Below are positions 241 through 47,675 of a DNA stretch of 50,476 bases, piece by piece (within the stretch, counting starts at the first letter, position 1; every line of letters starts with the position of its first letter). Source of the stretch: Sulfurimonadaceae bacterium (GTDB lineage Bacteria > Campylobacterota > Campylobacteria > Campylobacterales > Sulfurimonadaceae); assembly GCA_041562075.1 (NCBI GenBank), contig JBFEYO010000001.1, positions 1 through 50,476 on the forward strand, read 5' to 3'. The notes under the pieces are model-generated. The model had not been told where the DNA came from and did not search any database. It was given only the letters and a program-made list of their open reading frames with translations. Position numbers and translations under genes: made by a program.

Positions 241-2397
241 TTATAGTTTAAGAAGTTTTACGTCTTTAAATTTCAACAGTGAATTTTGATCTGCTGTAAA
301 TAGTTTCTTGGCGTTTAAATTTGCATCTGCGGTAGCAGTTTTTACAATCCCATTATAGAACTCAGGTGCAGTAACATCATCTTTAATATAGATACCACCT
401 TCATCTGAAGCTGAATCCTTAACAATCACAAAGTTATTGATCTTAGCCTGAGTCATCGGTGTAGCACCTACAGAAGAGATCTCCATCCCAGCATGCGCAG
501 CACTTGCCTGAGTAATGAATACACCATTAACAGTTCCAGAGTAACCTAGGTCTAGGTCAAGAGAGTCGTCTTGCGCATTAACAATCATTGCATTGGTCAA
601 GTTAACAGTACCACCCCAAATCTCAATACCATCATCAGAAGAGTTTCCAACATAGATATTCTCAATTGTTGTTCCATTACCAATACCACACAGTGAAAGA
701 CCATTGATTTCAATGTTGTCACCGATCACTTTACCAGTATGAAGAATATGTACATTTTTGAGTGATCCAGAATTATCTGCAGTATCACCCGCACCAGCTA
801 CAGCATTACCGAAAGCAAAACGTGGCTCAGTTTGATCAACTTCATAATGTGGATCGTTTTGATTAGTCGGTGCAGCACCAAGAATAGTCACACCACCCCA
901 TTGACCTGTAGCACCTGAACCTGGAATTGCCAAGTCTAGTGCAGAGGTGAAATAGATCGGCTCTGCATCAGTTCCCTCAGCAATGATTTGTCCACCTTTT
1001 TCAACTACTAAATAATCACTACCAGATGTACCATATAGTACTGTACCTGCTGGGATTGTCAGTACTTCACCTGCATTAACATATACACGTCCATTGATAT
1101 GATATTTATTTGTTTTAACCAGTGATTGTGTCGTCAAGTCGCCTGTAAGCGTTACTGTTGGTTTATTAGCATCATAAACTGAATAACCAATGTAGTCTGT
1201 TACTGTTGTACCTGAACCAGATACAAGCGTCGGTGAGTTAAAAAGTACATCCGTAAAAGATAAGGCTGCATCTTGACCAGCAGAAATTACTTTTTTAACG
1301 TTCAAGCCAGCATCTGTCCCTTGAGTAAGAACCTCACCATTAACAAATGTAGGTGCCGTTACATCATCTTTGATGTAGATCCCCCCCTCATCAGAACCAG
1401 CGACCTTACTAATCTTAAAGTTAGTGATCGTAGGTGTAGTCATTGGTGTTGCACCGACAGATGAGATTTCCATACCTGCATGTGCAATACCCACTTGTTG
1501 AATTTTAACATCTGTTACATTTCCAACATATCCTAAGTCAAGGTCAAGTGAATCATCTTGTGCATTAATGATAGTCAAACGAGTCATATCTACTGTACCA
1601 CCCCAAACTTCAATACCATCATCTGAAGAGTTAATAACAGTAATATCTTCGATTACAGTCCCATTTCCAACACCACACAGTGAAAGACCATTGATCTCAA
1701 TGTTATCACCTAGAACTTTACCTGTATTATAAATATTTACAAACTTTAAAGACCCTGAACTATCAGCAGCATCACCTGCAGCGGCAACTGCATTACCGAA
1801 AGCAAAACGTGGCTCAGTTTGATCAACTTCATAATGTGGGTCGTCTTGGTTAGTCGGTGCAGCACCAAGAATAGTCACACCACCCCATTGTCCCACGTCC
1901 GCACTAAGTGGATCAACAAGCGCTGTTCTAGAAGTAAAAATAATTGGTTCAGCCGCTGTACCATTCGCGATAATATCAGCACCTTTTTCAACGACTAAAT
2001 AATCACTTCCTGTTTCACCGAATAGAACTGTTCCCGCAGGAATTGTCAATGTTTCGCCTGTTGCCACGAAAACTCTTCCTGAAATATGGTATTGTTTTGT
2101 TTTATCTAGTGTTTGTGTACTTAAATCACCTGTCAAAGTAATAATATCCGCAGGATTGGTTGCAAGACGCGGATGGCTAGCAATAGCAGAAGCATCATTC
2201 GCAACATGTACAGCCTCAATATCAGCTGCGCCTGAACCACCATAATAAACAGTTGTTGCCGTTGCCGGTGGTGGAGTTGTTGGTGGTGGAGTTGTAGTTG
2301 TAGTATCAGTGGTACCACCACCTCCTCCACCACATCCAGTAAGTGATAACATACCTGCTGCTAAAAGACTAAGAACGATTTTCTGATTCGCTTTCAT
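241..2397 (-). CDS. Surface or periplasmic lipoprotein built from two tandem ~329-aa copies of a beta-helix-like domain; function unknown
   Basis: It has a signal peptide with lipobox LSLTGC, followed by a Gly6 run and a Thr/Pro-rich linker. Two collinear repeats share LTIPAGTVL, QWGGVTILGAAPTNQ, PHYEVDQTEPRFAFGNAV, NSSDDGIE.WGGTV, AQDDSLDLDLGY, HAGMEISSVGATPMT and DEGGIYIKDDVTAP. The parallel beta-helix fold is only an inference from the motif spacing. Confidence 0.7.
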   Translation of the reverse strand: MKANQKIVLSLLAAGMLSLTGCGGGGGGTTDTTTTTPPPTTPPPATATTVYYGGSGAADIEAVHVANDASAIASHPRLATNPADIITLTGDLSTQTLDKTKQYHISGRVFVATGETLTIPAGTVLFGETGSDYLVVEKGADIIANGTAAEPIIFTSRTALVDPLSADVGQWGGVTILGAAPTNQDDPHYEVDQTEPRFAFGNAVAAAGDAADSSGSLKFVNIYNTGKVLGDNIEINGLSLCGVGNGTVIEDITVINSSDDGIEVWGGTVDMTRLTIINAQDDSLDLDLGYVGNVTDVKIQQVGIAHAGMEISSVGATPMTTPTITNFKISKVAGSDEGGIYIKDDVTAPTFVNGEVLTQGTDAGLNVKKVISAGQDAALSFTDVLFNSPTLVSGSGTTVTDYIGYSVYDANKPTVTLTGDLTTQSLVKTNKYHINGRVYVNAGEVLTIPAGTVLYGTSGSDYLVVEKGGQIIAEGTDAEPIYFTSALDLAIPGSGATGQWGGVTILGAAPTNQNDPHYEVDQTEPRFAFGNAVAGAGDTADNSGSLKNVHILHTGKVIGDNIEINGLSLCGIGNGTTIENIYVGNSSDDGIEIWGGTVNLTNAMIVNAQDDSLDLDLGYSGTVNGVFITQASAAHAGMEISSVGATPMTQAKINNFVIVKDSASDEGGIYIKDDVTAPEFYNGIVKTATADANLNAKKLFTADQNSLLKFKDVKLLKL

Positions 2398-8729: not shown

Positions 8730-9215
8730 CTAGTGTTTTACTCGTCTCGCTTCATCCCAGAATTCATTGATCTGTAATTGTATCTTTTTAAGCCAATTAT
8801 ACAATAGAAAGATATTAATCCCAATGGCAATGAAGATGATGGAAGCCATCACATATATCCCATATTCCCCCATACCGTATCCGGCAGATACGATCAGATA
8901 AGACATCCCTACGATTGCCCATAATGCGATCGTCGGCAAAAAAAGCATCGCACCCCAGCATGAACTGATCTGCTCAAGCTTTCCGTTTTCCGAATAGAGT
9001 TTTCCGACATAAGCCGGCAATAACCAGCATGCACTGACTGCCAACGGTGGAAAAAGAACGGCTAACGCCGCATAAGAACGACCTGAAATACCCTTATTTC
9101 TATTTTTCTGTAGTTCAGAAAAGGTCTGTGCAAGCCAGTAAATACCATAAAGCCCAAAGCTCATTACCCATAGTCCGATGATTTTTTCAGGACTTCGTTT
9201 TGTTCCAATATACAT
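8730..9215 (-). CDS. Small integral membrane protein, possibly DUF4234-like
   Basis: There are four or five hydrophobic segments. The LYGIYWL motif near the N-terminus resembles DUF4234 as I remember it. A TATAAT-like box and AGGGGA lie upstream on the minus strand. Confidence 0.5.
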   Translation of the reverse strand: MYIGTKRSPEKIIGLWVMSFGLYGIYWLAQTFSELQKNRNKGISGRSYAALAVLFPPLAVSACWLLPAYVGKLYSENGKLEQISSCWGAMLFLPTIALWAIVGMSYLIVSAGYGMGEYGIYVMASIIFIAIGINIFLLYNWLKKIQLQINEFWDEARRVKH

Positions 9216-23080: not shown

Positions 23081-24721
23081 TTGATTCGCCTCTGGCTACT
23101 ATTTATCTGCTCACTGCAACTACTCCATGCCTCACTTCTTTTAACCAACGACACGCTTCCAGCCAAAAATTTTAAATTATCATACTACTATGATATCAGC
23201 AATACACAAGACATCAATGATATTCAAAACATCTCCTTTGATAAAGAACTCGACAGCCAATTTGCACTGGGTTACCTGGATGGGACCAGCTGGTTTAAGA
23301 TCGACCTGACAAACCAAAGCGAAACAGAGGATTTCATACTTTACTTTACTGAACCCTCAACGGAACGCTTCAATCTCTACACCAAAGAAGATGGAAAATG
23401 GAGTAAACAAGAACTCGGGTTTTTAACACCCATGGATGAACGGGAAATATATGATGCCAATCCGGTATTTCAACTCCATCTCAAACAGGGTCAGAGCAAG
23501 ACCTACTACATCCAGTTCTACGCCAAGTTTTCCCATATTGGAGAGTTTCAGCTGTATGATCTAAAATCCTTTTTAACCCATGACAAGATGATCATGACGA
23601 ATCTCTACCTGTTTTACTTTGGCGCCCTTTTGATGATCATCCTATTAAATGCCTTTTTATTCTTACGTCTGGGTGAGATTATCTATGCCTATTATGCAGC
23701 CTATGTCGGTTTTTTCTTTTTGTTTATTATCATTTTTGCAGGATTTGACATACTGGCAGGATTTGGAGAATGGCACTATCCATTACACTTTTCCGTACCA
23801 ATGGTAATGTTCTTTTTAATTCTTTTTTCATCCCATTTTCTTGAACTCAAGCAGTATATGCCTCGGATAGATAATATCCTTAAAACGATGATCTTTGCTT
23901 ATTTTATCTTTGCTATACTGATCTTTATCAGCGTTGATCCCTGGTATGAATATATGAATCATCTCAGCACCCTCGCCTTTATCATCCTTCTATGGGCATC
24001 AGTTTATATGTCGACGAAAGGCCATAAGGCCGCACAATATTATCTTGTCATTATGCTACCTAATATTATTTTTCTAGGCTTGATGGCCAATGTTTTTACC
24101 GGACAGATAGAGAATAACGATCTGAATCGTTACGGTTTTCTTTTTACCTCATTCTTTGAGATCAACTTTTTTGCACTCATACTCGCAAACCGCTTTTATG
24201 AGACAAAGGAACTGGCTAACCGCGATCCGTTGACCGGTCTATACAACCGACGTTATTTTGCCGGAATAGCCAATGACTTTGTACATAATGCGATCCGATA
24301 TCAACACCCTTTGACACTCTTCATGATCGATATCGATGACTTTAAGGTGATCAATGACACTTACGGACATGATGTCGGCGATGACGTTATCATCAAACTC
24401 TCCCGTTTACTTAAAAAACATGCACGTGAGAGTGATATTATTGTTCGATTTGGAGGCGAAGAGTTCGTCATCCTTCTGCCGGAGACCTCCTTGCTTGAAG
24501 CCCAGACACTAGCTTCAAGGATTCTGCGTCAATTTTCCAGCGAAGGTTTTCAAATAGCAAACAAGGAACTTGAACTTACTATCAGTATTGGCTTGGCTGA
24601 GTTTAACAGACAACGGGATCATCATATTGAAGATCTAATCAAAAAAGCAGACCTTGGGCTTTACAAAGCCAAAGAAAGCGGTAAGAATCAGATCATTACC
24701 TTTGAACACCCCGTATCCTAA
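23081..24721 (+). CDS. 7TMR-DISM-type sensor diguanylate cyclase (extracytoplasmic domain, 7 TM helices, GGDEF domain)
   Basis: It has a signal-like N-terminus, a ~170-aa periplasmic domain and seven hydrophobic helices. These are followed by [27 protein letters not shown] and RESD..RFGGEEF (active site plus I-site). The apparent start is TTG, with AGGAC 5 nt upstream. Confidence 0.8.
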
Positions 24722-26848: not shown

Positions 26849-26887
26849 AAACAAATATCATAAAATTATCTTATAGGATATTTGTTT
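26849..26887. promoter_or_regulatory. Perfect 11-bp inverted repeat between the MFS gene and the next GGDEF gene (terminator or operator)
   Basis: The repeat is aaacaaatatc (26849-26859) - 17 nt - gatatttgttt (26877-26887). It overlaps the TTG that the ORF track uses as the start. Confidence 0.4.
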
Positions 26888-26896
26888 AGGACTTCC

Positions 26897-28561
26897 ATGC
26901 GTAAAAGCCGTTTTGTCACCTTTTCCTTTATGTTGATCGTTTACTTCATCACGATGAGCCTATATTATCAACAAACCCACCATATTATTATCAATGAGAC
27001 GGAGAAGAATATTGAGGATACTCTGCTTTCTCAACGGGCTCTGGCAAACCTTGTCAGCAAGGTTCAAAAACCTGAAATCTATAAGCTGAAGATAGATGGT
27101 GTCTTAGACCGGGACTATTTCTCTCCCGCCCTTCTTTCAAGCTCCTTCATCACTACCAAACTCAATGAGTATGCCAATGTCGAGCGCAAGAAGCTGGGAA
27201 GAGACCCCTTGCACTTCAAATATGCCTCACCTAATCCTACCAATCCTAAAAACATGGCAGATCTGTTTGAACTTAATATCTATCAAAAGTTTCAGTCTAC
27301 TTCCATACGCACTTATAAAGAAGTCATTGTTCAAGACAATGAAGAGTATCTCTATTATGCTATCGCCGGGCAAATCATGGAAAAGCGCTGTCTTAGATGC
27401 CATGGAGATCCGGCAAAAGCACCTGGGGCCTTGGTTGATGCATACGGCACGGAGAACGGATTCGGTTATAAAACAGGAGAACTCTCTTCCATAATCTCTG
27501 TCAAAGTCCCCTTGGAAGGTATCTATAAGAAAAATGACGAACAGTTCTTCAAGATCGCAATGATTATTCTTTGTGCCTTTATCCTGCTCTATATCATTGC
27601 TGAGCTTTTCAACACCCGCATGGAGAAAAAAGAACGCGCCTTCCAAGAAGCCAAACTGCAACAAGAAGCCGATAAAATCCGAACTCAAGCACTTGAAAAT
27701 TCCCTGGAGCATCTGTATGAACACGTCATCTCCTCCCAATTTGACATGAAAGGAAAACTGATCAATGTCAGCGATGCCCTTTGCCGTCTCTCCGGCTATA
27801 ATAAAGAAGAATTAATCGGGCAGAACTTCTGTTACTTCAGACACCCCGATACTCCAGATTCCATCTTCCAAAGTATTTGGAAGACCCTCATCAAAGGTGG
27901 AAAGTGGACGGGAGAAGTCAAGAATATCTCCAAAACAGGTGAAGTATTCTGGGTAGAAACGGTCATTTCACCAATGAAAAACGAGCATAATATCACCTAT
28001 GCCTTTGAAGCGGTGATGCGAGTTATTACGGAGAAAAAGGCCCTTTTGGAAGATATCAATATCGATCCTTTAACCTCACTGCTCAATCGTCGCAGCTTCG
28101 AAAAACATTACCTAAAAGAAAAGAATCGTGCCAAACGCGATCGTAAGTATTTCGCCCTGTTAATGATCGACATTGACCACTTTAAAGAATATAATGACCT
28201 ATACGGCCATGTCAAAGGAGATGAAGCCCTCCAAAAAGTATCCCGCAATCTGCAGCGAAGCTTCCGTCGTTCTTCAGATCTGATCTTTCGTCTGGGGGGA
28301 GAAGAGTTTGCTGTACTCACTTCAGAAAAAGAGATAGAACGGGTTATTGAATCCGCCGAAAATGCCTGTGATAAACTGTCCCAGGAGTGTATCACGCATG
28401 AAAAAAATGATGAGCTAAAGTGTATGACAATCTCTATTGGTGTTGCTATCATCCCCCAAGACTCCAATCTAAGTCTTGAAGAGGTCTATCAAAAAAGTGA
28501 TGAAGCCCTTTACCGGGCGAAACAAAACGGTAGAAACCGTGTCGAAGTTGTAGAGCTCTAA
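26897..28561 (+). CDS. Haem-c sensor (DUF3365-like) / TM / PAS / GGDEF diguanylate cyclase
   Basis: The periplasmic domain carries CLRCHG with GDPAKAPGALVDAYG. It is followed by a TM segment, a PAS domain (NKEELIGQNFCYF..GEVFWVE) and then DPLTSLLNRRSF, DIDHFKEYNDLYGH and RSSD..RLGGEEF. The start is set at ATG 26897, with AGGA 5 nt upstream. Confidence 0.75.
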   Translation: MRKSRFVTFSFMLIVYFITMSLYYQQTHHIIINETEKNIEDTLLSQRALANLVSKVQKPEIYKLKIDGVLDRDYFSPALLSSSFITTKLNEYANVERKKLGRDPLHFKYASPNPTNPKNMADLFELNIYQKFQSTSIRTYKEVIVQDNEEYLYYAIAGQIMEKRCLRCHGDPAKAPGALVDAYGTENGFGYKTGELSSIISVKVPLEGIYKKNDEQFFKIAMIILCAFILLYIIAELFNTRMEKKERAFQEAKLQQEADKIRTQALENSLEHLYEHVISSQFDMKGKLINVSDALCRLSGYNKEELIGQNFCYFRHPDTPDSIFQSIWKTLIKGGKWTGEVKNISKTGEVFWVETVISPMKNEHNITYAFEAVMRVITEKKALLEDINIDPLTSLLNRRSFEKHYLKEKNRAKRDRKYFALLMIDIDHFKEYNDLYGHVKGDEALQKVSRNLQRSFRRSSDLIFRLGGEEFAVLTSEKEIERVIESAENACDKLSQECITHEKNDELKCMTISIGVAIIPQDSNLSLEEVYQKSDEALYRAKQNGRNRVEVVEL

Positions 28562-30477: not shown

Positions 30478-30611
30478 GACATCTCTCCATACACATCTAT
30501 CTCGTATTGTAAATAATCGTGATTATATCCAAATTAGGCTCATACCTAGGTTAGACAGCCATATTGGATGCTTCAACACACAACAATTAAGGTTTTTTAT
30601 GTTTTTTTTAG

Positions 30612-30617
30612 TATAAT
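30612..30617 (+). promoter_or_regulatory. -10 box (tagTATAAT) for the first degenerate-GGDEF paralogue
   Basis: The sequence ttttttttagTATAATtc matches the 9-mer tagtataat found upstream of the second paralogue. It lies 22 nt upstream of GTG 30640. Confidence 0.4.
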
Positions 30618-30639: not shown

Positions 30640-31419
30640 GTGTCCAATTTACAAGAAGTCAAAACCGTTATTTTTGATAAAAACCTCAACCGTATCATCC
30701 AGTCCGATCCAATCTTTGAAGCCCTCTTTCAAAATATCTATACCCTGACGGCTCTTAATGCCTTTCTTGCACAAAACGCCATGCTCGATGAGGGCTTCTT
30801 ACACAAATTGAAGATGAGTGGGAAAGAGTATCACCTCTGTTATCAGATGGCCGATTTAGATGAGACCTTTGAGTTTCGGTTCTTTTTGTTATCGGATTCC
30901 TGGTTCGTCGTCAATCCGACCGGTTGTTACGATCTATATGATCAACTTACCGGACTGATGACGGAAAAGAACATCCTCTCTACCCTGAAGCATGAGATCA
31001 AACGTACCATTCGCGATAAGAATGCCACCACCGCTCTTATTCTTGATGTCAAGCACCTTAAAAATATCAACGAGATGTTTGGATACCTCGCCGGTGATCA
31101 TGTGTTGCAGGAGATTGCCCGTACGCTTAGAGAAAATACACGGGGTTCAGATGCCCTGGGGCGATTCAAAGGGGATAAGTATCTAATCCTCCTACATAAC
31201 ACGGATGCCCACGGCACCATGCAGTATGTCAAAAAATTTGAAAACGCACTGAGCAAAATCGATTTCAGTTTCAATGACTTTAATTTTGATGTGGAACTGA
31301 ATTTCGGTGTCACGCTTACCAGTGAAGGTGATACGGTCCATACCCTCATTGACCGGGCAAGCAAAGCCCTCATCAAAGCAAAAAAAAGCAAGTCCTCCAA
31401 TATCGAATACCTTTTGTAG
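30640..31419 (+). CDS. Degenerate GGDEF-domain protein with an unassigned ~115-aa N-terminal domain (paralogue 1)
   Basis: The GGDEF-fold markers DQLTGL, LDVKHLKNINEMFGYLAGD and RGSD-ALG-RFKGDKY show a lost active site and a retained RxxD. The GTG start was chosen by collinearity with the downstream paralogue, which gives 259 codons for each, and by its position after the -10 box. The track ORF starts at ATG 30568. Confidence 0.65.
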   Translation: MSNLQEVKTVIFDKNLNRIIQSDPIFEALFQNIYTLTALNAFLAQNAMLDEGFLHKLKMSGKEYHLCYQMADLDETFEFRFFLLSDSWFVVNPTGCYDLYDQLTGLMTEKNILSTLKHEIKRTIRDKNATTALILDVKHLKNINEMFGYLAGDHVLQEIARTLRENTRGSDALGRFKGDKYLILLHNTDAHGTMQYVKKFENALSKIDFSFNDFNFDVELNFGVTLTSEGDTVHTLIDRASKALIKAKKSKSSNIEYLL

Positions 31420-31425
31420 TATAAT
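31420..31425 (+). promoter_or_regulatory. -10 box (tagTATAAT) for the second degenerate-GGDEF paralogue
   Basis: In ttttgtagTATAATcc, the tag is the stop codon of paralogue 1. The box lies 34 nt upstream of ATG 31460. Confidence 0.4.
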
Positions 31426-31459
31426 CCTAGCCATAGTTTTATGCTCAAAGGCCATCAAG

Positions 31460-32239
31460 ATGTCTGCCATGCTTCAAAAAATCATTACTGTTGTCTTTGA
31501 TAAGAACATGAATATGCTTCTACGTTCAGACCCGGTCTTTGATTATCTTTTTCCCAAGATCACTACCCTCACCGACTTTCAGCACTTTTTAGATCAAAAC
31601 AGTTTTCATGATGAAAACTTTTTGGCCCGCTTAAACGTCGAAGGTAGAGAACACCACATCTGCTACAAGGGATTTGATCTGCAGGAACAATATAAATTTG
31701 AGTTTTTTCTTCTGGATGAGGAGTGGACAATCATCCACCCTTCCGGACGCCACGACATTCATGACAGACTCACAGGGGTCCTGACACAAAAAAGTTTCCT
31801 GCCCATACTCGATCATGAGATCCACCGAAGCCAGCGGAACAAGGAGCCCTACACCCTTTTGCTCATTGATATCTCCCACCTCAAAGATATCAATGAGGCC
31901 TTTGGATACATTGCAGGAGATTCTCTTATCAAAGCCGTGGCTGGTCTTTTACAGCAACACTCCCGTGCGTCTGACATTCTTGGTCGTTATCATGGAGATA
32001 AGTTTTTGCTCCTTCTGAACAAAACCGATCGTGCCGGTGCCGTGCATTTCATCCAGAAGCTCAACACCCAGATCAATGAACTGACCATGCACTTTGGCGA
32101 AGTAAACCTGCAGGTTCAAGTCCGCTATGGTATGAGCGGGCATGATCACGAAGATACGGTTGACACCCTTCTTCAGGGAGTTACGGCCAGTCTCAAACAG
32201 ACGAAGATCGACAATCCTGCTCAAATCATGGAGTTTTAA
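31460..32239 (+). CDS. Degenerate GGDEF-domain protein with an unassigned ~115-aa N-terminal domain (paralogue 2)
   Basis: Markers are DRLTGV, IDISHLKDINEAFGYIAGD and RASD-ILG-RYHGDKF. The start is set at MSAMLQK, with AAGG upstream. The track ORF starts inside the upstream gene at 31307. Confidence 0.65.
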   Translation: MSAMLQKIITVVFDKNMNMLLRSDPVFDYLFPKITTLTDFQHFLDQNSFHDENFLARLNVEGREHHICYKGFDLQEQYKFEFFLLDEEWTIIHPSGRHDIHDRLTGVLTQKSFLPILDHEIHRSQRNKEPYTLLLIDISHLKDINEAFGYIAGDSLIKAVAGLLQQHSRASDILGRYHGDKFLLLLNKTDRAGAVHFIQKLNTQINELTMHFGEVNLQVQVRYGMSGHDHEDTVDTLLQGVTASLKQTKIDNPAQIMEF

Positions 32240-37756: not shown

Positions 37757-39454
37757 CTATTTAAGCAGATCAGGAAGCGGCTCGCCCAGATGAAATCCCT
37801 GAGCATAGGTCACACCCATCTTCTCAACCAGATCCAATACTTCTTGAGAATGGACAAACTCTGCAACCGTAGGGATATTAAGACGTTTAGCAAAATTCAC
37901 TATAGACTCTGTAATCACTCGGTGATTTGGATTTTCAGGGAGATCCCGGATAAAAGCACCATCGATTTTCAAAGTCGATATAGGCAGATTGATAAGTTGC
38001 CCAAAGTTAGAACACTCTGCACCAAAATCATCAATTATAATCGAGCACCCTTTGTCATGCAATGTAAACAGACGCTCTTTTATCAACTCATTGTTCATGA
38101 TACTCTTCTCCTCAAGTATCTCGATACCTATCTGCCGGGGGTCAACGCTGTACTTCTGGAACATTCCCTCCATAAACTCGATAAGATCCGGCTCTTGAAA
38201 ATCCTGATCTGTCATATTCACCGTCAACTTCCCACTGAACTCTTTTGTCTTTTTGCAGGCACTTTCAAACATCACCTGAAAAATCGCATACATCTGACCA
38301 CTGTTCTTAGCTGCTTCCAGAAATTCAAAAGGAGAGATGACTTTCCCCTCATGAAGCATACGTACCAGGCATTCATACTTGAGAACCTCTCCTGTCTCAA
38401 TAGAGAAAATTGGCTGATAATAACTCACGATGCGATTAGTTTCCAAGGCATCACGAATCCGTTTGACCCAGATAGAGTTCGTCTTGATGGTTTTGATAAT
38501 CTTGATGTCATCGGTATATTTTTTCGCTCTGTTTCGTCCAAGGGAGCGGGCCTCTTTAAGGGCAAACTCTGCCTTTTGGATCAGATTTCCTTCCTCATGC
38601 ATCGCCAGGCCAAGGGTCACACTCAATCGATTTTCCACGCCTCCAAGCAAGAAACTCATCTCATTGATCTCTTTTTGTATGGCAAAGAGCTTCTCTTCAC
38701 TGATCTCCTCACCTGAACTGAGAATACCGAAAGTATCCACTTCCAGATGAAACACCTCCATCTCTTCACCATACATGCTCTGTAAAAAACCGCCCATCTG
38801 CATTAATAGATCATCGCCGATCTCAAATCCCTGGGTTTCATTAATCATACTGAAACTGTCAATGTTTAACAACACAAGGTTTTTTGCCCCGTGGCTGTCC
38901 AGTCTTTCATTCAGTTTTTGACGATTGGGAAGTTTGGTCAAAGGATGGGTAGTCATCTGCTTGTACACATCTTCATACTTATGTTCCAATTCAAGCAAAT
39001 GCGTATATTGGCGAATCGAAGAGCGTACTACCGTATAAAACTTATCAATGGAGAGTTCTGTCTTCTCCTTATAGTCCGTGATATCATAATGATCGATAAT
39101 ATCTCTTTCGGGGACCTCATCGGGCTGACCGGTCCGTACGACAAGCCGAATAAGCTTATTTCCAAGATCATTACGAATATAATTGATCAGATCCAAGCCC
39201 GCAGTTGATGTCTCCATGATCACATCTACCAAGGCCAAGGCAATGTCATCATGTTCATTTAATTTCTCTTTAGCTTCCTCTGCGCTCATGGCGTTAATAA
39301 GCTCAAGTCGGCGTCCATCGATCAGAACAGACTTCAAGGCATTCGCTGTAATATCATGAACGGAAGCCTCATCATCTATGACCAGGATCTTCCATGATTC
39401 CTTAGGAAGCGCTTTGTCTTCACGCTCCTGGGCAAACTCAAATAAATCGCTCAT
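37757..39454 (-). CDS. Response regulator with REC, degenerate GGDEF and EAL domains (c-di-GMP phosphodiesterase type)
   Basis: The REC domain shows ILVIDDE, ALVDVIME and RTGQPDE. The GGDEF-like domain has EVDTF in place of GGDEF and no RxxD. The EAL domain retains ECLVR, N, EILE, IIDDFG, KIDG and QGF. Confidence 0.8.
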   Translation of the reverse strand: MSDLFEFAQEREDKALPKESWKILVIDDEASVHDITANALKSVLIDGRRLELINAMSAEEAKEKLNEHDDIALALVDVIMETSTAGLDLINYIRNDLGNKLIRLVVRTGQPDEVPERDIIDHYDITDYKEKTELSIDKFYTVVRSSIRQYTHLLELEHKYEDVYKQMTTHPLTKLPNRQKLNERLDSHGAKNLVLLNIDSFSMINETQGFEIGDDLLMQMGGFLQSMYGEEMEVFHLEVDTFGILSSGEEISEEKLFAIQKEINEMSFLLGGVENRLSVTLGLAMHEEGNLIQKAEFALKEARSLGRNRAKKYTDDIKIIKTIKTNSIWVKRIRDALETNRIVSYYQPIFSIETGEVLKYECLVRMLHEGKVISPFEFLEAAKNSGQMYAIFQVMFESACKKTKEFSGKLTVNMTDQDFQEPDLIEFMEGMFQKYSVDPRQIGIEILEEKSIMNNELIKERLFTLHDKGCSIIIDDFGAECSNFGQLINLPISTLKIDGAFIRDLPENPNHRVITESIVNFAKRLNIPTVAEFVHSQEVLDLVEKMGVTYAQGFHLGEPLPDLLK

Positions 39455-41040: not shown

Positions 41041-41880
41041 ATGAGACTATTATTCACTTTTTTTCTGTTATGTGCAAGCCTTTTAGCTAATATTGTCGGA
41101 GGGATTGCCGTCAAAGTCGATGATGAAACGATTACCCTCTACGAGATTGAACAAGAGCGCGAAATTTCCCAGGAGAGTGTCAAACAGACCGTCGACAGAC
41201 TGATCCGTGTCAAACTTGAACGAATCGAGGCCAAAAAACGTAATATCAATGTTACGAATCAGGAAGTTCTGGATGACCTTAAAAAGATGGCCGAGCAAAA
41301 CAATCTGACCCTCCCCCAGTTGTATGAAGCCATGAGTTCGGTACGTCATCTTAGCGAATCACAGACCAAGGCAAAGACCAAGGAAAAACTACTCAAACAA
41401 AAACTCTTTAATGCCATTGCCATGTCTCAGATGGAAGAGCCGACTGAAGAAGAGATCCAGGAGTATTATCAACTGCATCTAAGCGAGTATCAGATGCCTA
41501 AAAGTATCGATACTGTCGTCTACAGTGCCGCTGATGAGCAGACACTCAAACTCAAGATTTCCAATCCCATGATGAATGCGCCGGGAGTCAGAACAGAAAA
41601 CACACGCCTGGAGATGGCCAAGATCAATCCACGTCTGGCAAGCATATTGGTACAGACAGAAGATGGGAAGTTTAGTCCTATTCTCCCTCAAGCCGGGGGT
41701 TCAGGGCATATGGCCTTTTATGTTTTGCGTAAAAATGAGATCAATACTCCGCCTCTGGAGCTGATCCGATCCCAGGTGGAAAACAAGATCATGGAAGCCA
41801 ACAGAGAACATATCCTTAACGATCATTTTCAACGTATGCGTGTCAATGCAGACATTAAAGTCCTTCGGCTCCCTGAGTAA
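41041..41880 (+). CDS. SurA-like periplasmic chaperone
   Basis: It has a signal peptide and a SurA_N-like helical N-terminal region. It sits between gltX and accC, as I recall for the SurA-like chaperone Cj1289 in Campylobacter jejuni. Confidence 0.6.
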   Translation: MRLLFTFFLLCASLLANIVGGIAVKVDDETITLYEIEQEREISQESVKQTVDRLIRVKLERIEAKKRNINVTNQEVLDDLKKMAEQNNLTLPQLYEAMSSVRHLSESQTKAKTKEKLLKQKLFNAIAMSQMEEPTEEEIQEYYQLHLSEYQMPKSIDTVVYSAADEQTLKLKISNPMMNAPGVRTENTRLEMAKINPRLASILVQTEDGKFSPILPQAGGSGHMAFYVLRKNEINTPPLELIRSQVENKIMEANREHILNDHFQRMRVNADIKVLRLPE

Positions 41881-44766: not shown

Positions 44767-45168
44767 TTGAAACACTCCCTCTCTGCTCCTTTTGGAGCTG
44801 TCATACTCGTCTTTTTTTCCGGCTTTTTATTCCCTTTGATCTTCAGTCTTTTGGATAAACTACTTAGAGAACTTCTTATCTCCCTTCCCCCGCTGCTGTT
44901 AACCATCCTAAGCTTTTCATGGCTCTTGCTGCTTTATTATTTCGGGATCAAGTTTTCCATCGACTATATTTCTGAGCACTTCGAGTTCACATCAGAACAG
45001 AGTCTGTTTACTTACAGCAACATCATCTTTGCGTCCTTGAACCTCTTCTCCTACAGTCTGATGATCTCCCCGTCGATCCTCTCTAACCTGCTTTGGGGTA
45101 TGTTCTATCTCTGTATCATGGGATTTTTCTATTACTTGAGCAGCCGCAGGCTGCTGCAAAAGGCCTAA
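44767..45168 (+). CDS. Hypothetical four-TM membrane protein
   Basis: The TTG start lies 4 nt after the dcd stop. It has four hydrophobic segments and no recognisable motif. Confidence 0.4.
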   Translation: MKHSLSAPFGAVILVFFSGFLFPLIFSLLDKLLRELLISLPPLLLTILSFSWLLLLYYFGIKFSIDYISEHFEFTSEQSLFTYSNIIFASLNLFSYSLMISPSILSNLLWGMFYLCIMGFFYYLSSRRLLQKA

Positions 45169-45176
45169 GAAGCCTC

Positions 45177-45527
45177 TTAAAACAGCTCCAAGACCTTCTC
45201 AGGCGGTCTTCCCAGTACAGCCTTGTCACCTTTGATCACAATCGGACGTTCGATCAATTTAGGGTTTTCCGCCATTGCCTGGATCAAAGCCTCTTCGTCT
45301 TCTACCGCTTTCAGGTTCAACTCTTTATAGATAGCCTCTTTTGTACGCATCAATTCACGTGCTTTCAATCCCAGTTTCTTCAAAATACCGCGGATAGTAT
45401 CTGCATCCGGTGTCTCATCAAGATATTTGAATACCTCCATGTCTGCATTTTGTTCCTCCAGTATTCCCAATGTCTGTCGCGATTTCGTACAGCGCGGGTT
45501 ATGCCAGATGGTATATTCACTCATCAT
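45177..45527 (-). CDS. arsC: ArsC/Spx-family (glutaredoxin-type arsenate reductase-like) protein
   Basis: It has the IWHNPRCTKSR catalytic-Cys context, a length of ~116 aa and the ending ...LIERPIV. Confidence 0.8.
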   Translation of the reverse strand: MMSEYTIWHNPRCTKSRQTLGILEEQNADMEVFKYLDETPDADTIRGILKKLGLKARELMRTKEAIYKELNLKAVEDEEALIQAMAENPKLIERPIVIKGDKAVLGRPPEKVLELF

Positions 45528-45642
45528 TGCTCCTTTGTCAAATTTTTCATAATTATACTCAGATTCATGTTTTACGCGATGAAAGCCATCATATTTCCAG
45601 TCTATAAAATTATTTTTAGTTATATGGCGCTAATATAAGCCT

Positions 45643-46155
45643 ATGTATAAAAATATCAAGTCATTTACCAAGATCGCCGAGTTTGGACGCAAGCTTCTTG
45701 CCCGCCCTTCACTGGAACTGGCCATACCGATGATCTCATCCTATGCCAAGGAACTTCTTGAAGCCGATCGCTGTTCCGTATTTATCTATGATAAAAAGAA
45801 CAATATGCTCTGGACCGTACTGGCTGATGGCGTGGAGACCATTCGTATCTCCACTGAGGAAGGCATTGTCGGTGCAGCTTTCAGGGATAAAAAAGCACTG
45901 ATTGTTAATGATCCTTATGCTGATCAACGTTTCTCTTCCAAGATTGATCACGAAACAGGCTATATCACTAAAAACATCATCGCCATTCCCATCATGAATG
46001 CTTTCAATGAACCTATCGGTGTCCTGCAGCTTCTGAATAAAAGCAGCGGAGATTTTGACAAGGAAGACAAACGTCTGCTAACCTTTTTCAACCACTACAT
46101 CAGTGGATATGTAGAACTTTCGATCCTCTTTAGTGAAGAATCAGCCAAAGAATGA
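45643..46155 (+). CDS. Stand-alone GAF-domain protein (paralogue 1)
   Basis: Motifs are [41 protein letters not shown] and [16 protein letters not shown]. Its stop overlaps the next gene start as ATGA. Confidence 0.7.
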
Positions 46156-47675
46156 GACATGCGAAACTGATTGCTTCACTTCTGTTAGACTCCTTTAAAG
46201 ACCTTCTGCCTATTATCTTGGTCATTGCCTTTTTTCAGATAGTCATTCTTCAGCAAATTCCTCAAAACCTCGGATCTATCATTCTTGGATTGATCATTGT
46301 CGCCATCGGTTTGGCCATCTTTATCCAGGGTCTGGAGATCGGTATTTTTCCCATTGGCGAGAATCTCGCTCATGAATTTGCGGCTAAAGGTTCGGTCTTC
46401 TGGCTACTTCTGTTTGCCTTTGCCATTGGTTTTTCCACGACCGTTGCCGAACCGGCGCTCATTGCCATCGCTAAAAAGGCCCAGGTGATCTCCTCCGGTA
46501 AGATCAATGCCGACACCCTTCGTCTCACCGTTGCATTCTCCGTCGGCCTCGCCATTGCCCTGGGCTCCTGGCGTATCATCACCGGTCATCCGATCCATCT
46601 GTATATCATTACGGGGTATGTCATTGTGGTACTCTTTACGTTTTTTGTACCCGTTGAAATTGTTGGGCTGGCCTATGATTCCGGCGGGGTGACGACCTCA
46701 ACCGTCACCGTACCCCTCGTCGCCGCGCTGGGTGTCGGACTTGCTTCAAGTATTCGCGGTCGCAATCCGGTAATCGACGGCTTTGGACTGATTGCCTTTG
46801 CATCCCTGACACCCATGATCTTTGTACAAGCCTATGGACTCATCGTTTATAACCTTGACTTTACACCCCTTGATCCTCTGACCGAGATCACCGGTGTCAT
46901 CCCCGAAGCTGCCATTGACAAGTTCTCAAGCATGAATCTCTTTTACGAGCTTATGAGTGTTATCAAGGACATCTTCCCTATTTTGGCGGTGATCTTCTTT
47001 TTCCAATACCTCATCATCAAGCAGCCATTGGCAGGGCTTCGCCGTATTTCCATAGGTATAGTCTTTGTCATCATTGGACTGTATGCCTTTATCGTAGGCC
47101 TTGAGATGGGTCTATTTCCCATCGGTGAGACCATGGCCCTGCAGCTTACTGCCCAGGATAATCTCTTTTATATTTATCTTTTTGGTTTCCTTATCGGCTT
47201 TTCGACGACCATGGCCGAACCGGCTCTGCTCGCAGTAGCCATCAAGGTGGAAGAGATCTCCCAGCAGCGTATTCGTCAGAGCATTCTGCGTCTTTCCGTT
47301 GCCTTTGGAGTCGCCATCGGTATCGCGCTCGGGGCTTATCGGATCGTACAGGGAGATGCCATCCACTACTATATCATCGTCGGCTATATCATCGTCATCA
47401 TCCTGACCTTTTTTGCCCCCAAATATATCATCCCGATCGCCTATGATTCCGGCGGGGTGACGACCTCCACCGTCACCGTTCCCCTGGTCGCTGCCCTGGG
47501 CCTGGGACTGGCAACCCAGATCGAGGGCAGAAGTGCCCTCATCGACGGGTTTGGATTGATCGCTTTTGCCTCCCTCTTTCCGATGATCACGGTTATGGGT
47601 TATGGAGTCATCAGTCAATACCTGGCCTATTATGACAAGCAAAGAAAATCACAAACCAAAGGAGATCCATCATGA
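46152..47675 (+). CDS. Fused double DUF1538-family integral membrane protein
   Basis: It has two homologous ~250-aa halves, each with about six TM helices and the motifs GLE(I/M)G(I/L)FPIGE, GFSTT(V/M)[25 protein letters not shown] and [12 protein letters not shown]. The family assignment is from memory of DUF1538 sequences. Confidence 0.6.

Follow-up and report, generated by a model that had tools for sequence, protein, structure and literature searches.

Two adjacent genes of a Sulfurimonadaceae bacterium, called A and B here, encode paralogous proteins of 259 amino acids (aa) in which a predicted PAS-like domain is followed by a degenerate GGDEF domain. The genes lie in a stretch of 50,476 nucleotides (nt) of GenBank assembly GCA_041562075.1 (contig JBFEYO010000001.1, positions 1 to 50,476, forward strand), and this whole stretch is called the window. 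With middling confidence, and judging from the sequences, I read A and B as non-catalytic PAS-like-GGDEF proteins that would bind cyclic di-GMP (c-di-GMP) at a complete inhibitory site (I-site) and would signal via oligomerisation or partner binding; I infer the loss of cyclase activity, the binding of the ligand, and the output alike. Conservation is stricter in the substrate pocket than at the I-site, and a guanine nucleotide bound in the active site (A-site) is therefore likely to have a part in the mechanism. The features of the pair are as follows.

30640-31419, + strand: gene A, 780 nt, GTG start, 259-aa PAS-like and degenerate GGDEF protein, A-type paralogue
30640..30936, + strand: N-terminal domain of A (aa 1-99), family-specific, with a predicted reduced PAS-like fold
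30937..31419, + strand: GGDEF domain of A (aa 100-259), with Pfam and NCBIfam matches and a Foldseek template-modelling (TM) score of 0.91 to 3ign
31141..31152, + strand: I-site RGSD of A (R168-D171), aligned to RQSD of 3ign and RSSD of WspR
31168..31182, + strand: degenerate active-site motif KGDKY of A (aa 177-181), aligned to GGEEF
31460-32239, + strand: gene B, 780 nt, ATG start, 259-aa PAS-like and degenerate GGDEF protein, B-type paralogue
31460..31759, + strand: N-terminal domain of B (aa 1-100), predicted PAS-like, 46% identical to that of A and sharing its invariant residues
31964..31975, + strand: I-site RASD of B (aa 169-172), read from the sequence and aligned to RQSD of 3ign
31991..32005, + strand: degenerate active-site motif HGDKF of B (aa 178-182), aligned to GGEEF

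A preliminary description of this region had reported two adjacent paralogous genes of 780 nt, and the open reading frames (ORFs) bear this out. In a gapless alignment of 252 residues, the proteins show 41% identity (E 2e-81). Their 259-aa starts are common to the homologues, which are all about 259 aa long and begin at the same first residue; in the orthologous loci the start codon is GTG, TTG, or ATG, and its position is unchanged. Longer versions of the two ORFs (283 and 310 aa) were dropped, because the homologues share the 259-aa starts.

The GGDEF fold claimed for both proteins was confirmed. The Pfam GGDEF family (PF00990; cut-off 23.8) matches A at aa 100-252 (E 4.4e-30, 105 bits) and B at aa 100-249 (E 2.1e-28, 99.6 bits), and TIGR00254 (cut-off 37.4) scores 106 bits for A and 102 bits for B. 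In HMMER alignments with 3ign and WspR, the RGSD and RASD sequences fall on RQSD and RSSD, the KGDKY and HGDKF sequences fall on GGEEF, and there is no insertion or deletion between the motifs. In both proteins RxxD lies five residues upstream of the motif, as in GGDEF domains bearing an I-site, and the register is the same against the two canonical cyclases of the window (GGEEF with RSSD or RESD). Since the alignments to the solved and the same-window cyclases have no gap between the two motifs, RxxD can be regarded as the homologue of the I-site, at the canonical spacing that the preliminary description had given it. The alterations of the other motifs noted there also agree with the alignments: besides the replacement of GG(D/E)EF by KGDKY or HGDKF, LTGLxNRR has become LTGLMTEK or LTGVLTQK (the NRR turn being T-E/Q-K) and GH has become GY.

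In PleD, residues D327 and E370 bind metals, N335 and D344 contact guanine, K442 and R446 contact phosphates, and the I-site consists of R359, D362, R390, and R313′ (PMC7288161). The conservation of the corresponding positions was counted in 61 family sequences (47-100% identity) and is given below in the numbering of A; the register onto PleD and WspR residue numbers was counted by hand and is an inferred one.

PleD D327 (metal): D136, 61/61
PleD E370 (metal): D179, 60/61
PleD N335 (guanine): N144, 61/61
PleD D344 (guanine): D153, 61/61
PleD K442 (phosphate): K248, 61/61
PleD R446 (phosphate): position 252, variable (S/T/I)
PleD E371 (motif position 4): K180, Lys in 61/61
PleD G368 (motif position 1): position 177, which is K, H, Q, or M
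PleD R359 (I-site): R168, 60/61
PleD D362 (I-site): D171, 61/61
PleD R390 (I-site): K/R199, 59/61

In addition, R175 is conserved in all 61 members, and R122 (57/61) and R125 (61/61) align to the arginines of the WspR RRSLR sequence, in the helix that supplies the secondary I-site Arg (the region of PleD R313 and WspR R198). In permutation tests, the four I-site positions were more conserved than random positions of the GGDEF domain (p about 0.008), and the five retained A-site contacts (D136, N144, D153, D179, and K248) were even more conserved (p < 1e-5). Compared with an active cyclase, A and B lack an intact GG(D/E)EF with Glu at position 4, and the family retains the metal ligands and the guanine contacts. 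The phosphate contacts and the LTGLxNRR turn are not intact, as K248 is kept and the Arg at the R446 position and the NRR are lost. The GGDEF domain is not drifting; it has been fixed without the catalytic Glu and with both nucleotide pockets. The invariant Lys combined with the intact guanine pocket is the one unexplained feature of the family.

A mechanism can be proposed on this basis. A and B would be soluble proteins consisting of a reduced PAS-like domain, a short non-helical linker, and a GGDEF domain without two-metal catalysis. Catalysis would have been lost through the invariant Glu-to-Lys change at motif position 4, the change of Gly to Lys or His at position 1, and the loss of the Arg at the PleD R446 position and of the NRR turn. 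What is retained is the complete I-site (RxxD, the basic residue at the PleD R390 position, and the helix arginines) together with the guanine and metal contacts. c-di-GMP would bind to the I-site, probably as an intercalated dimer, and the helix arginines would enable this ligand to cross-link a pair of GGDEF domains, which may be A with A, A with B, or either of them with another GGDEF protein. The cross-linking may alter the oligomeric state or the binding of partners. The A-site pocket probably holds a guanine nucleotide without turnover, and the PAS-like domain may supply a second input or an interface for a partner or for dimerisation. In PelD and PopA, RxxD is the binding site of c-di-GMP. 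Degenerate GGDEF proteins such as PopA, PelD, and CdgA are established c-di-GMP receptors (PMC3974145).

The N-terminal domain had been described as a module of about 115 aa that could not be assigned to a family and might be the output or partner module. It is about 99 aa long instead. Its conservation between A and B was confirmed, and by sequence it does resist assignment. Pfam has no match within the first 99 residues of the full proteins, and NCBIfam, with full-length A and B, leaves the N-terminal region without a match except for one noise hit in A. When 35 isolated N-terminal domains were compared with Pfam at E <= 10, only noise was found (BUD31 and EAD8) and no PAS family (PF00989, PF08447, PF13426, and others). 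A profile search of the PDB sequences gave only a chance match to a designed TPR protein. The hhalign comparison of the domain profile with the PAS domain of the neighbouring gene was not significant (probability 0.3%), although FDKNLNRIIQSDP was aligned there to the first two strands of the PAS domain, as would be expected. Among 1.84 billion representatives, a profile search gave only 9 hits for the domain, and these matches are the family itself, two distant relatives of the same architecture (P0068 and P0069), fragments, and two repetitive junk proteins. Thus, among these representatives, the domain never occurs with another partner domain.

By predicted fold, the domain is PAS-like. AlphaFold2, given the family alignment, modelled protein A with a mean predicted local distance difference test score (pLDDT) of 82.6. 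The N-terminal domain of this model has strands at residues 8-13 and 18-21, helices at 24-29 and 36-45, and strands at 55-59, 62-72, and 76-84. This order (b-b-a-a-b-b-b) is that of a reduced PAS domain, with about 85 structured residues, and the linker (residues 89-100) is non-helical and of low confidence. The best Foldseek match of the full model of A is the PAS-GGDEF-EAL protein PA0861 (E 2.4e-15, 277 columns). Nearly all of the top 50 Foldseek matches of the isolated domain are PAS, LOV, or phytochrome PAS domains, all weak; examples are the TraJ PAS domain (E 9e-3) and the FlrB and VC2136 PAS domains (TM 0.5-0.54). The preliminary description had held that a well-known sensor domain at this place would speak against its model, and the weak PAS/LOV matches go part of the way in this direction, with no match by sequence. 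The domain is probably a divergent, minimal PAS-like domain (moderate confidence), and therefore a role in input or dimerisation is more likely for it than one as a novel output module. No other part of the protein is as constrained. In the comparison of the window with its closest relative (locus L001), the proportion of nonsynonymous differences (pN) is 0.038 for the N-terminal domain vs. 0.108 for the GGDEF domain, and the mean column entropies are 1.00 and 1.25, respectively. Residues H65, C67, and Y68, in strand 62-72, are nearly invariant in the core family and are not kept in P0068 and P0069.

The family is real, conserved, and narrowly distributed, and its proteins are of a rather ordinary kind. 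The 259-aa length is the rule in about 60 homologous clusters. In a scan of 185,579 species with one genome per species, the family was found in only 14 genomes, all of them metagenome-assembled genomes (MAGs) labelled Sulfurimonadaceae, Sulfurimonas, Campylobacterales, or "Arcobacter sp.", and the window sequence is present in marine metagenome runs. The gene order moeA-moaE-moaD (minus strand), A with or without B, mqnA, and the gene for NAD-glutamate dehydrogenase (gdh) is kept in 14 of the 14. Six relatives have the complete tandem pair. Half of the genomes (7/14) have one full-length copy only, which argues against the tandem pair as a functional unit, as it had been presented. The single copy is A-type in five and B-type in two: those of loci L003, L010, and L011 are A-type in the tree, those of L008 (FDKNLNR) and L014 match A best, and those of L012 and L013 are B-type.

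In a neighbour-joining tree rooted on P0068 and P0069, the sequences form two reciprocally monophyletic clades, in which the first-position genes are A-type (FDKNLNR) and the second-position genes are B-type (FDKNMNL); gene B of the window falls in the B clade. The branches of the B-type are longer, and B evolves faster than A. The reciprocally monophyletic clades and the reciprocal single-copy genomes show that the duplication is old and that either copy can be lost. The same single-copy genomes argue against an obligate A-B heterodimer, and this idea was rejected. Synonymous sites are saturated (proportion of synonymous differences, pS, 0.72-0.87) and pN lies far below (0.04-0.25), which indicates strong purifying selection on the sequences of both A and B. 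The distant relatives P0068 (RDSD...GGDKF) and P0069 (RSAD...EGDSF) have the same architecture in 258 aa, with RxxD kept and the Glu gone.

Some loci deviate from the common arrangement. In L005 (3550-3927), the second, B-type copy is shortened so that only about 92-132 residues match, and in L014 (4725-5502) the A-type gene is broken into two reading frames; both cases are due to gene decay or to errors in the MAG assemblies. In L008 (3191-3742), a gene for a 183-aa NifU_N-like protein lies between the A-type gene and mqnA, in the slot that the B copy has elsewhere. L002 and L011 are titled "Arcobacter sp.", and they have the full moeA-moaE-moaD/GGDEF/mqnA/gdh order with flanking proteins 65-87% identical to those of the window. 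Their genus label may be wrong.

Several observations weigh against reading A and B as PAS-like-GGDEF proteins that bind c-di-GMP at the I-site. The A-site pocket is more strictly conserved than the I-site and could be the primary ligand site. The receptor model of the preliminary description, in which the I-site alone acts, fits the degenerate active site and the conserved I-site but leaves this stricter conservation unexplained. RxxD is also common in active cyclases and is therefore no proof of a receptor by itself. Variants at the first motif position, AGDEF and SGDEF, can be active (PMC3974145). The isolated model of the N-terminal domain has a pLDDT of 68.7, which is a moderate confidence, and Foldseek found nothing for it below E 1e-3 (E 9e-3 to 0.13, TM 0.31-0.54). 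Neither an output domain nor a conserved partner gene was found for A and B, and the contexts of P0068 and P0069 are unrelated to theirs (beside a DUF234 gene, or inside a ribosomal-protein/secY/infA region). A search of sequencing runs for the window sequence gave only three runs, all from marine metagenomes and of the probable DNA type, and none of RNA.

The conserved pocket lends itself to another explanation, in which A and B are sensors of a guanine nucleotide (GTP, GDP, pGpG, or (p)ppGpp) at the degenerate active site and the I-site is secondary or vestigial. The invariant Lys would contact a phosphate in place of the metal ion. This resembles the GEDEF domain of CC3396/PdeA, a catalytically inactive domain with a preserved substrate pocket, for which bound GTP is the signal (PMC7288161). 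D136, N144, D153, and K248 are invariant and D179 nearly so, a set more conserved than that of the I-site, and the Asp at the D344 position indicates guanine specificity (PMC7288161). The phosphate contacts look remodelled and not simply lost, as the R446 position and the NRR turn are gone and K180 is gained, and there are solved structures of PleD with ppGpp or pppGpp (9g85 and 9g86). However, the I-site residues are significantly conserved too, and in the CC3396 precedent the target is a fused EAL domain, which A and B lack; I consider this explanation unlikely, if worth keeping in mind. It is slightly harder to believe that A and B are trans-acting inhibitors or scaffolds. Cyclase activity requires two GTP-loaded GGDEF domains, and a dead subunit would form unproductive heterodimers with a catalytic GGDEF protein; the contact would be made by the PAS-like domain or by c-di-GMP that cross-links the I-sites. 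Such cross-linking joins RxxD with an Arg of the neighbouring domain (PMC7288161), and both RxxD and the helix arginines are conserved in the family. Three further GGDEF-domain genes, two canonical and one GGDEF-EAL, lie within about 8 kb, and complexes of diguanylate cyclases and phosphodiesterases with degenerate members have been discussed (PMC3974145). On the other hand, there is no specific co-varying partner, the neighbouring 559-aa cyclase is absent or non-adjacent in several loci (some loci are cut short), and the proposal is purely inferential. Rather doubtful, too, are two related variants: a metal-independent sensor of a guanine nucleotide other than c-di-GMP (GTP, pGpG, or (p)ppGpp), or a half-site partner that changes the product or activity of active cyclases. 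The invariant Lys, the conserved guanine pocket, and the remodelled phosphate contacts may mark a domain converted to such a use, and in either case an orphan PAS-like domain with a ligand of its own would integrate a second signal.

The retained metal and guanine contacts raise the question of whether A and B are still diguanylate cyclases, or makers of another product, with a non-canonical [KH]GDK[FY] active site. The I-site is typical of active, product-inhibited cyclases, and the AGDEF and SGDEF enzymes mentioned above are active despite the change at the first position. However, Lys stands for the position-4 Glu in all members, the two canonical cyclases of the window have GGEEF, and the A-site of a Vibrio cyclase was knocked out by an E-to-A change at position 4 (PMC3974145). 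The R446 position and the NRR turn are lost as well, and the model of A lacks a helical linker such as positions the GGDEF dimers in regulated PAS-GGDEF cyclases. Residual catalysis is thus quite improbable. That A and B are decaying, functionless relics of a duplicated cyclase gene is hardly credible and effectively refuted by the conservation pattern. The shortened copy in L005, the split copy in L014, and the faster evolution of B would fit such decay; against it, both ORFs are intact, the length is kept in about 60 clusters, pN is far below the saturated pS, and the degenerate motif is invariant and not drifting. The pseudogene reading was ruled out by the purifying selection and the motif invariance.

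How do A and B, read as c-di-GMP receptors, compare with known systems? PopA of Caulobacter crescentus is soluble, has a degenerate A-site, and lacks an enzymatic output domain; c-di-GMP bound at its intact RxxD drives its localisation or its binding of a partner. A and B share the degenerate A-site, the intact RxxD I-site, and the lack of an enzymatic output domain. In contrast, PopA has two N-terminal receiver domains where A and B have one PAS-like domain, its motif is another, and there is no close sequence relationship; Pfam gave no Response_reg match in A or B. PelD of Pseudomonas aeruginosa likewise has a degenerate GGDEF domain with RxxD and regulates via protein contacts, but it is membrane-anchored, has a GAF domain, and is far more degenerate in the A-site, whereas the A/B family keeps the guanine and metal contacts at PleD D327, E370, N335, and D344. 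A and B have no transmembrane segment and no GAF match, and PelD chains were absent from the PDB sequence hits. E. coli CdgI/YeaI is a degenerate GGDEF protein proposed or shown to be a c-di-GMP-binding effector. CdgA (Bd3125) of Bdellovibrio is another such effector (PMC3974145). The N-terminal regions and motifs of these two are unlike those of A and B, and no specific sequence relationship was detected. The GGDEF domain of CC3396/PdeA activates the EAL phosphodiesterase domain to which it is fused. No EAL match, as would be expected for a protein of the LapD, FimX, or CC3396 type, was found in A or B; the NCBIfam LapD scores were 39 and 49 bits vs. the cut-off of 1020, and the other NCBIfam equivalog scores were far below their cut-offs.

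The active PAS-GGDEF proteins (PA0861/RbdA, 5xgb; the LOV-GGDEF protein, 8c05) have the same domain order as A and B. They differ in having GG(D/E)EF, a helical linker, and a PAS domain of full size that Pfam recognises, whereas A and B have [KH]GDK[FY], a reduced PAS-like domain unrecognised by sequence, and a short linker of low confidence. In sequence, A and B are closer to the active cyclases 3ign, WspR, SiaD, and PleD than to any known receptor family. Since both the sequence and the fold are closest to active PAS-GGDEF cyclases, the family appears to be an independent degeneration event. In function, A and B would most resemble effectors of the PopA, PelD, and CdgA types and the CC3396 GEDEF domain, without being members of those families. 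A literature search for the motifs GGDKF, KGDKF, and HGDKF found no paper, and the literature on Sulfurimonas plus GGDEF held nothing specific to the A/B family.

If confirmed, the reading would add an independently evolved family to the degenerate-GGDEF c-di-GMP effectors, and A and B would count among the earliest effector candidates of the free-living sulfur-oxidising Campylobacterota, a group with large c-di-GMP networks that await characterisation. As a clean natural experiment, the family combines an invariant Glu-to-Lys change with a kept substrate pocket and I-site, and it could reveal what selection maintains in a GGDEF domain after the loss of catalysis. Its practical importance is limited, as the hosts are uncultured and the general idea is well established.

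Two short sequences upstream of the genes deserve mention.

30609..30617, + strand: TAGTATAAT, a -10-like putative promoter box behind a T-run, 22 nt upstream of the start of gene A
31417..31425, + strand: the TAG stop codon of A plus TATAAT, a possible -10 box of B's own, 34 nt upstream of the ATG of B

The 9-mer TAGTATAAT, which contains the -10-like TATAAT, had been noted upstream of both genes. It does have two copies in the window, one upstream of each gene, where 0.36 would be expected; upstream of B, however, its TAG is the stop codon of A, and this box is present only in the window and in L001. A T-run with (T)AGTATAAT, GTTATAAT, or AGTACAAT is kept at about the same distance upstream of A in most orthologous loci, and the box upstream of A may act as a promoter element. 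Neither of the two boxes was reported by a two-hexamer promoter scan of the region. Since no terminator-like site was found between A and B on the + strand, B may be transcribed from the promoter of A as well as from its own. Rfam at the gathering threshold matched no family in the whole window, c-di-GMP riboswitches included.

The window is an ordinary chromosomal stretch with, among others, cbb3 oxidase genes, carA, purA, AddAB-like helicase and nuclease genes, gltX, accBC, and asnB, and genes related to c-di-GMP are abundant in it. The three other c-di-GMP genes near the A/B pair are the following.

23081-24721, + strand: gene for a 7TMR-DISMED2/7TM-GGDEF protein with a canonical GGDEF motif
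26882-28561, + strand: gene for a Tll0287-like, PAS, and GGDEF protein (GGEEF, RSSD I-site)
37757-39454, - strand: gene for a GGDEF-EAL protein with a degenerate GGDEF motif (aligned sequence HLEVDTF)

The organism probably makes c-di-GMP, as two of these genes have canonical GGDEF motifs and the third encodes a GGDEF-EAL protein. A functional link to the molybdopterin and menaquinone neighbours was considered and rejected, as the 14 genomes are close relatives with general collinearity and P0068 and P0069 lie elsewhere. The unrelated contexts of these distant relatives make the neighbourhood (moaD/E, moeA, mqnA, and gdh) uninformative on function.

In another Campylobacterota-like genome (L029 6001-7562, L030 449-2010), the P0069 gene is inserted in a ribosomal-protein/secY/map/infA/rpmJ region. 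It is convergent with a gene for a 262-aa, very degenerate GGDEF-like protein (Pfam GGDEF E 2e-6) with a coiled-coil-like N-terminus, and the two appear to be a second, unrelated pairing of dead GGDEF genes. In the window, four ORFs have no Pfam match at E <= 1e-5, namely 241-2397 (- strand, 718 aa), 8730-9215 (- strand, 161 aa), 41041-41880 (+ strand, 279 aa), and 45093-45638 (+ strand, 181 aa). The 181-aa ORF lies directly upstream of a gene for a stand-alone GAF domain (45643-46155) and a gene for a DUF1538 membrane protein (46152-47675).

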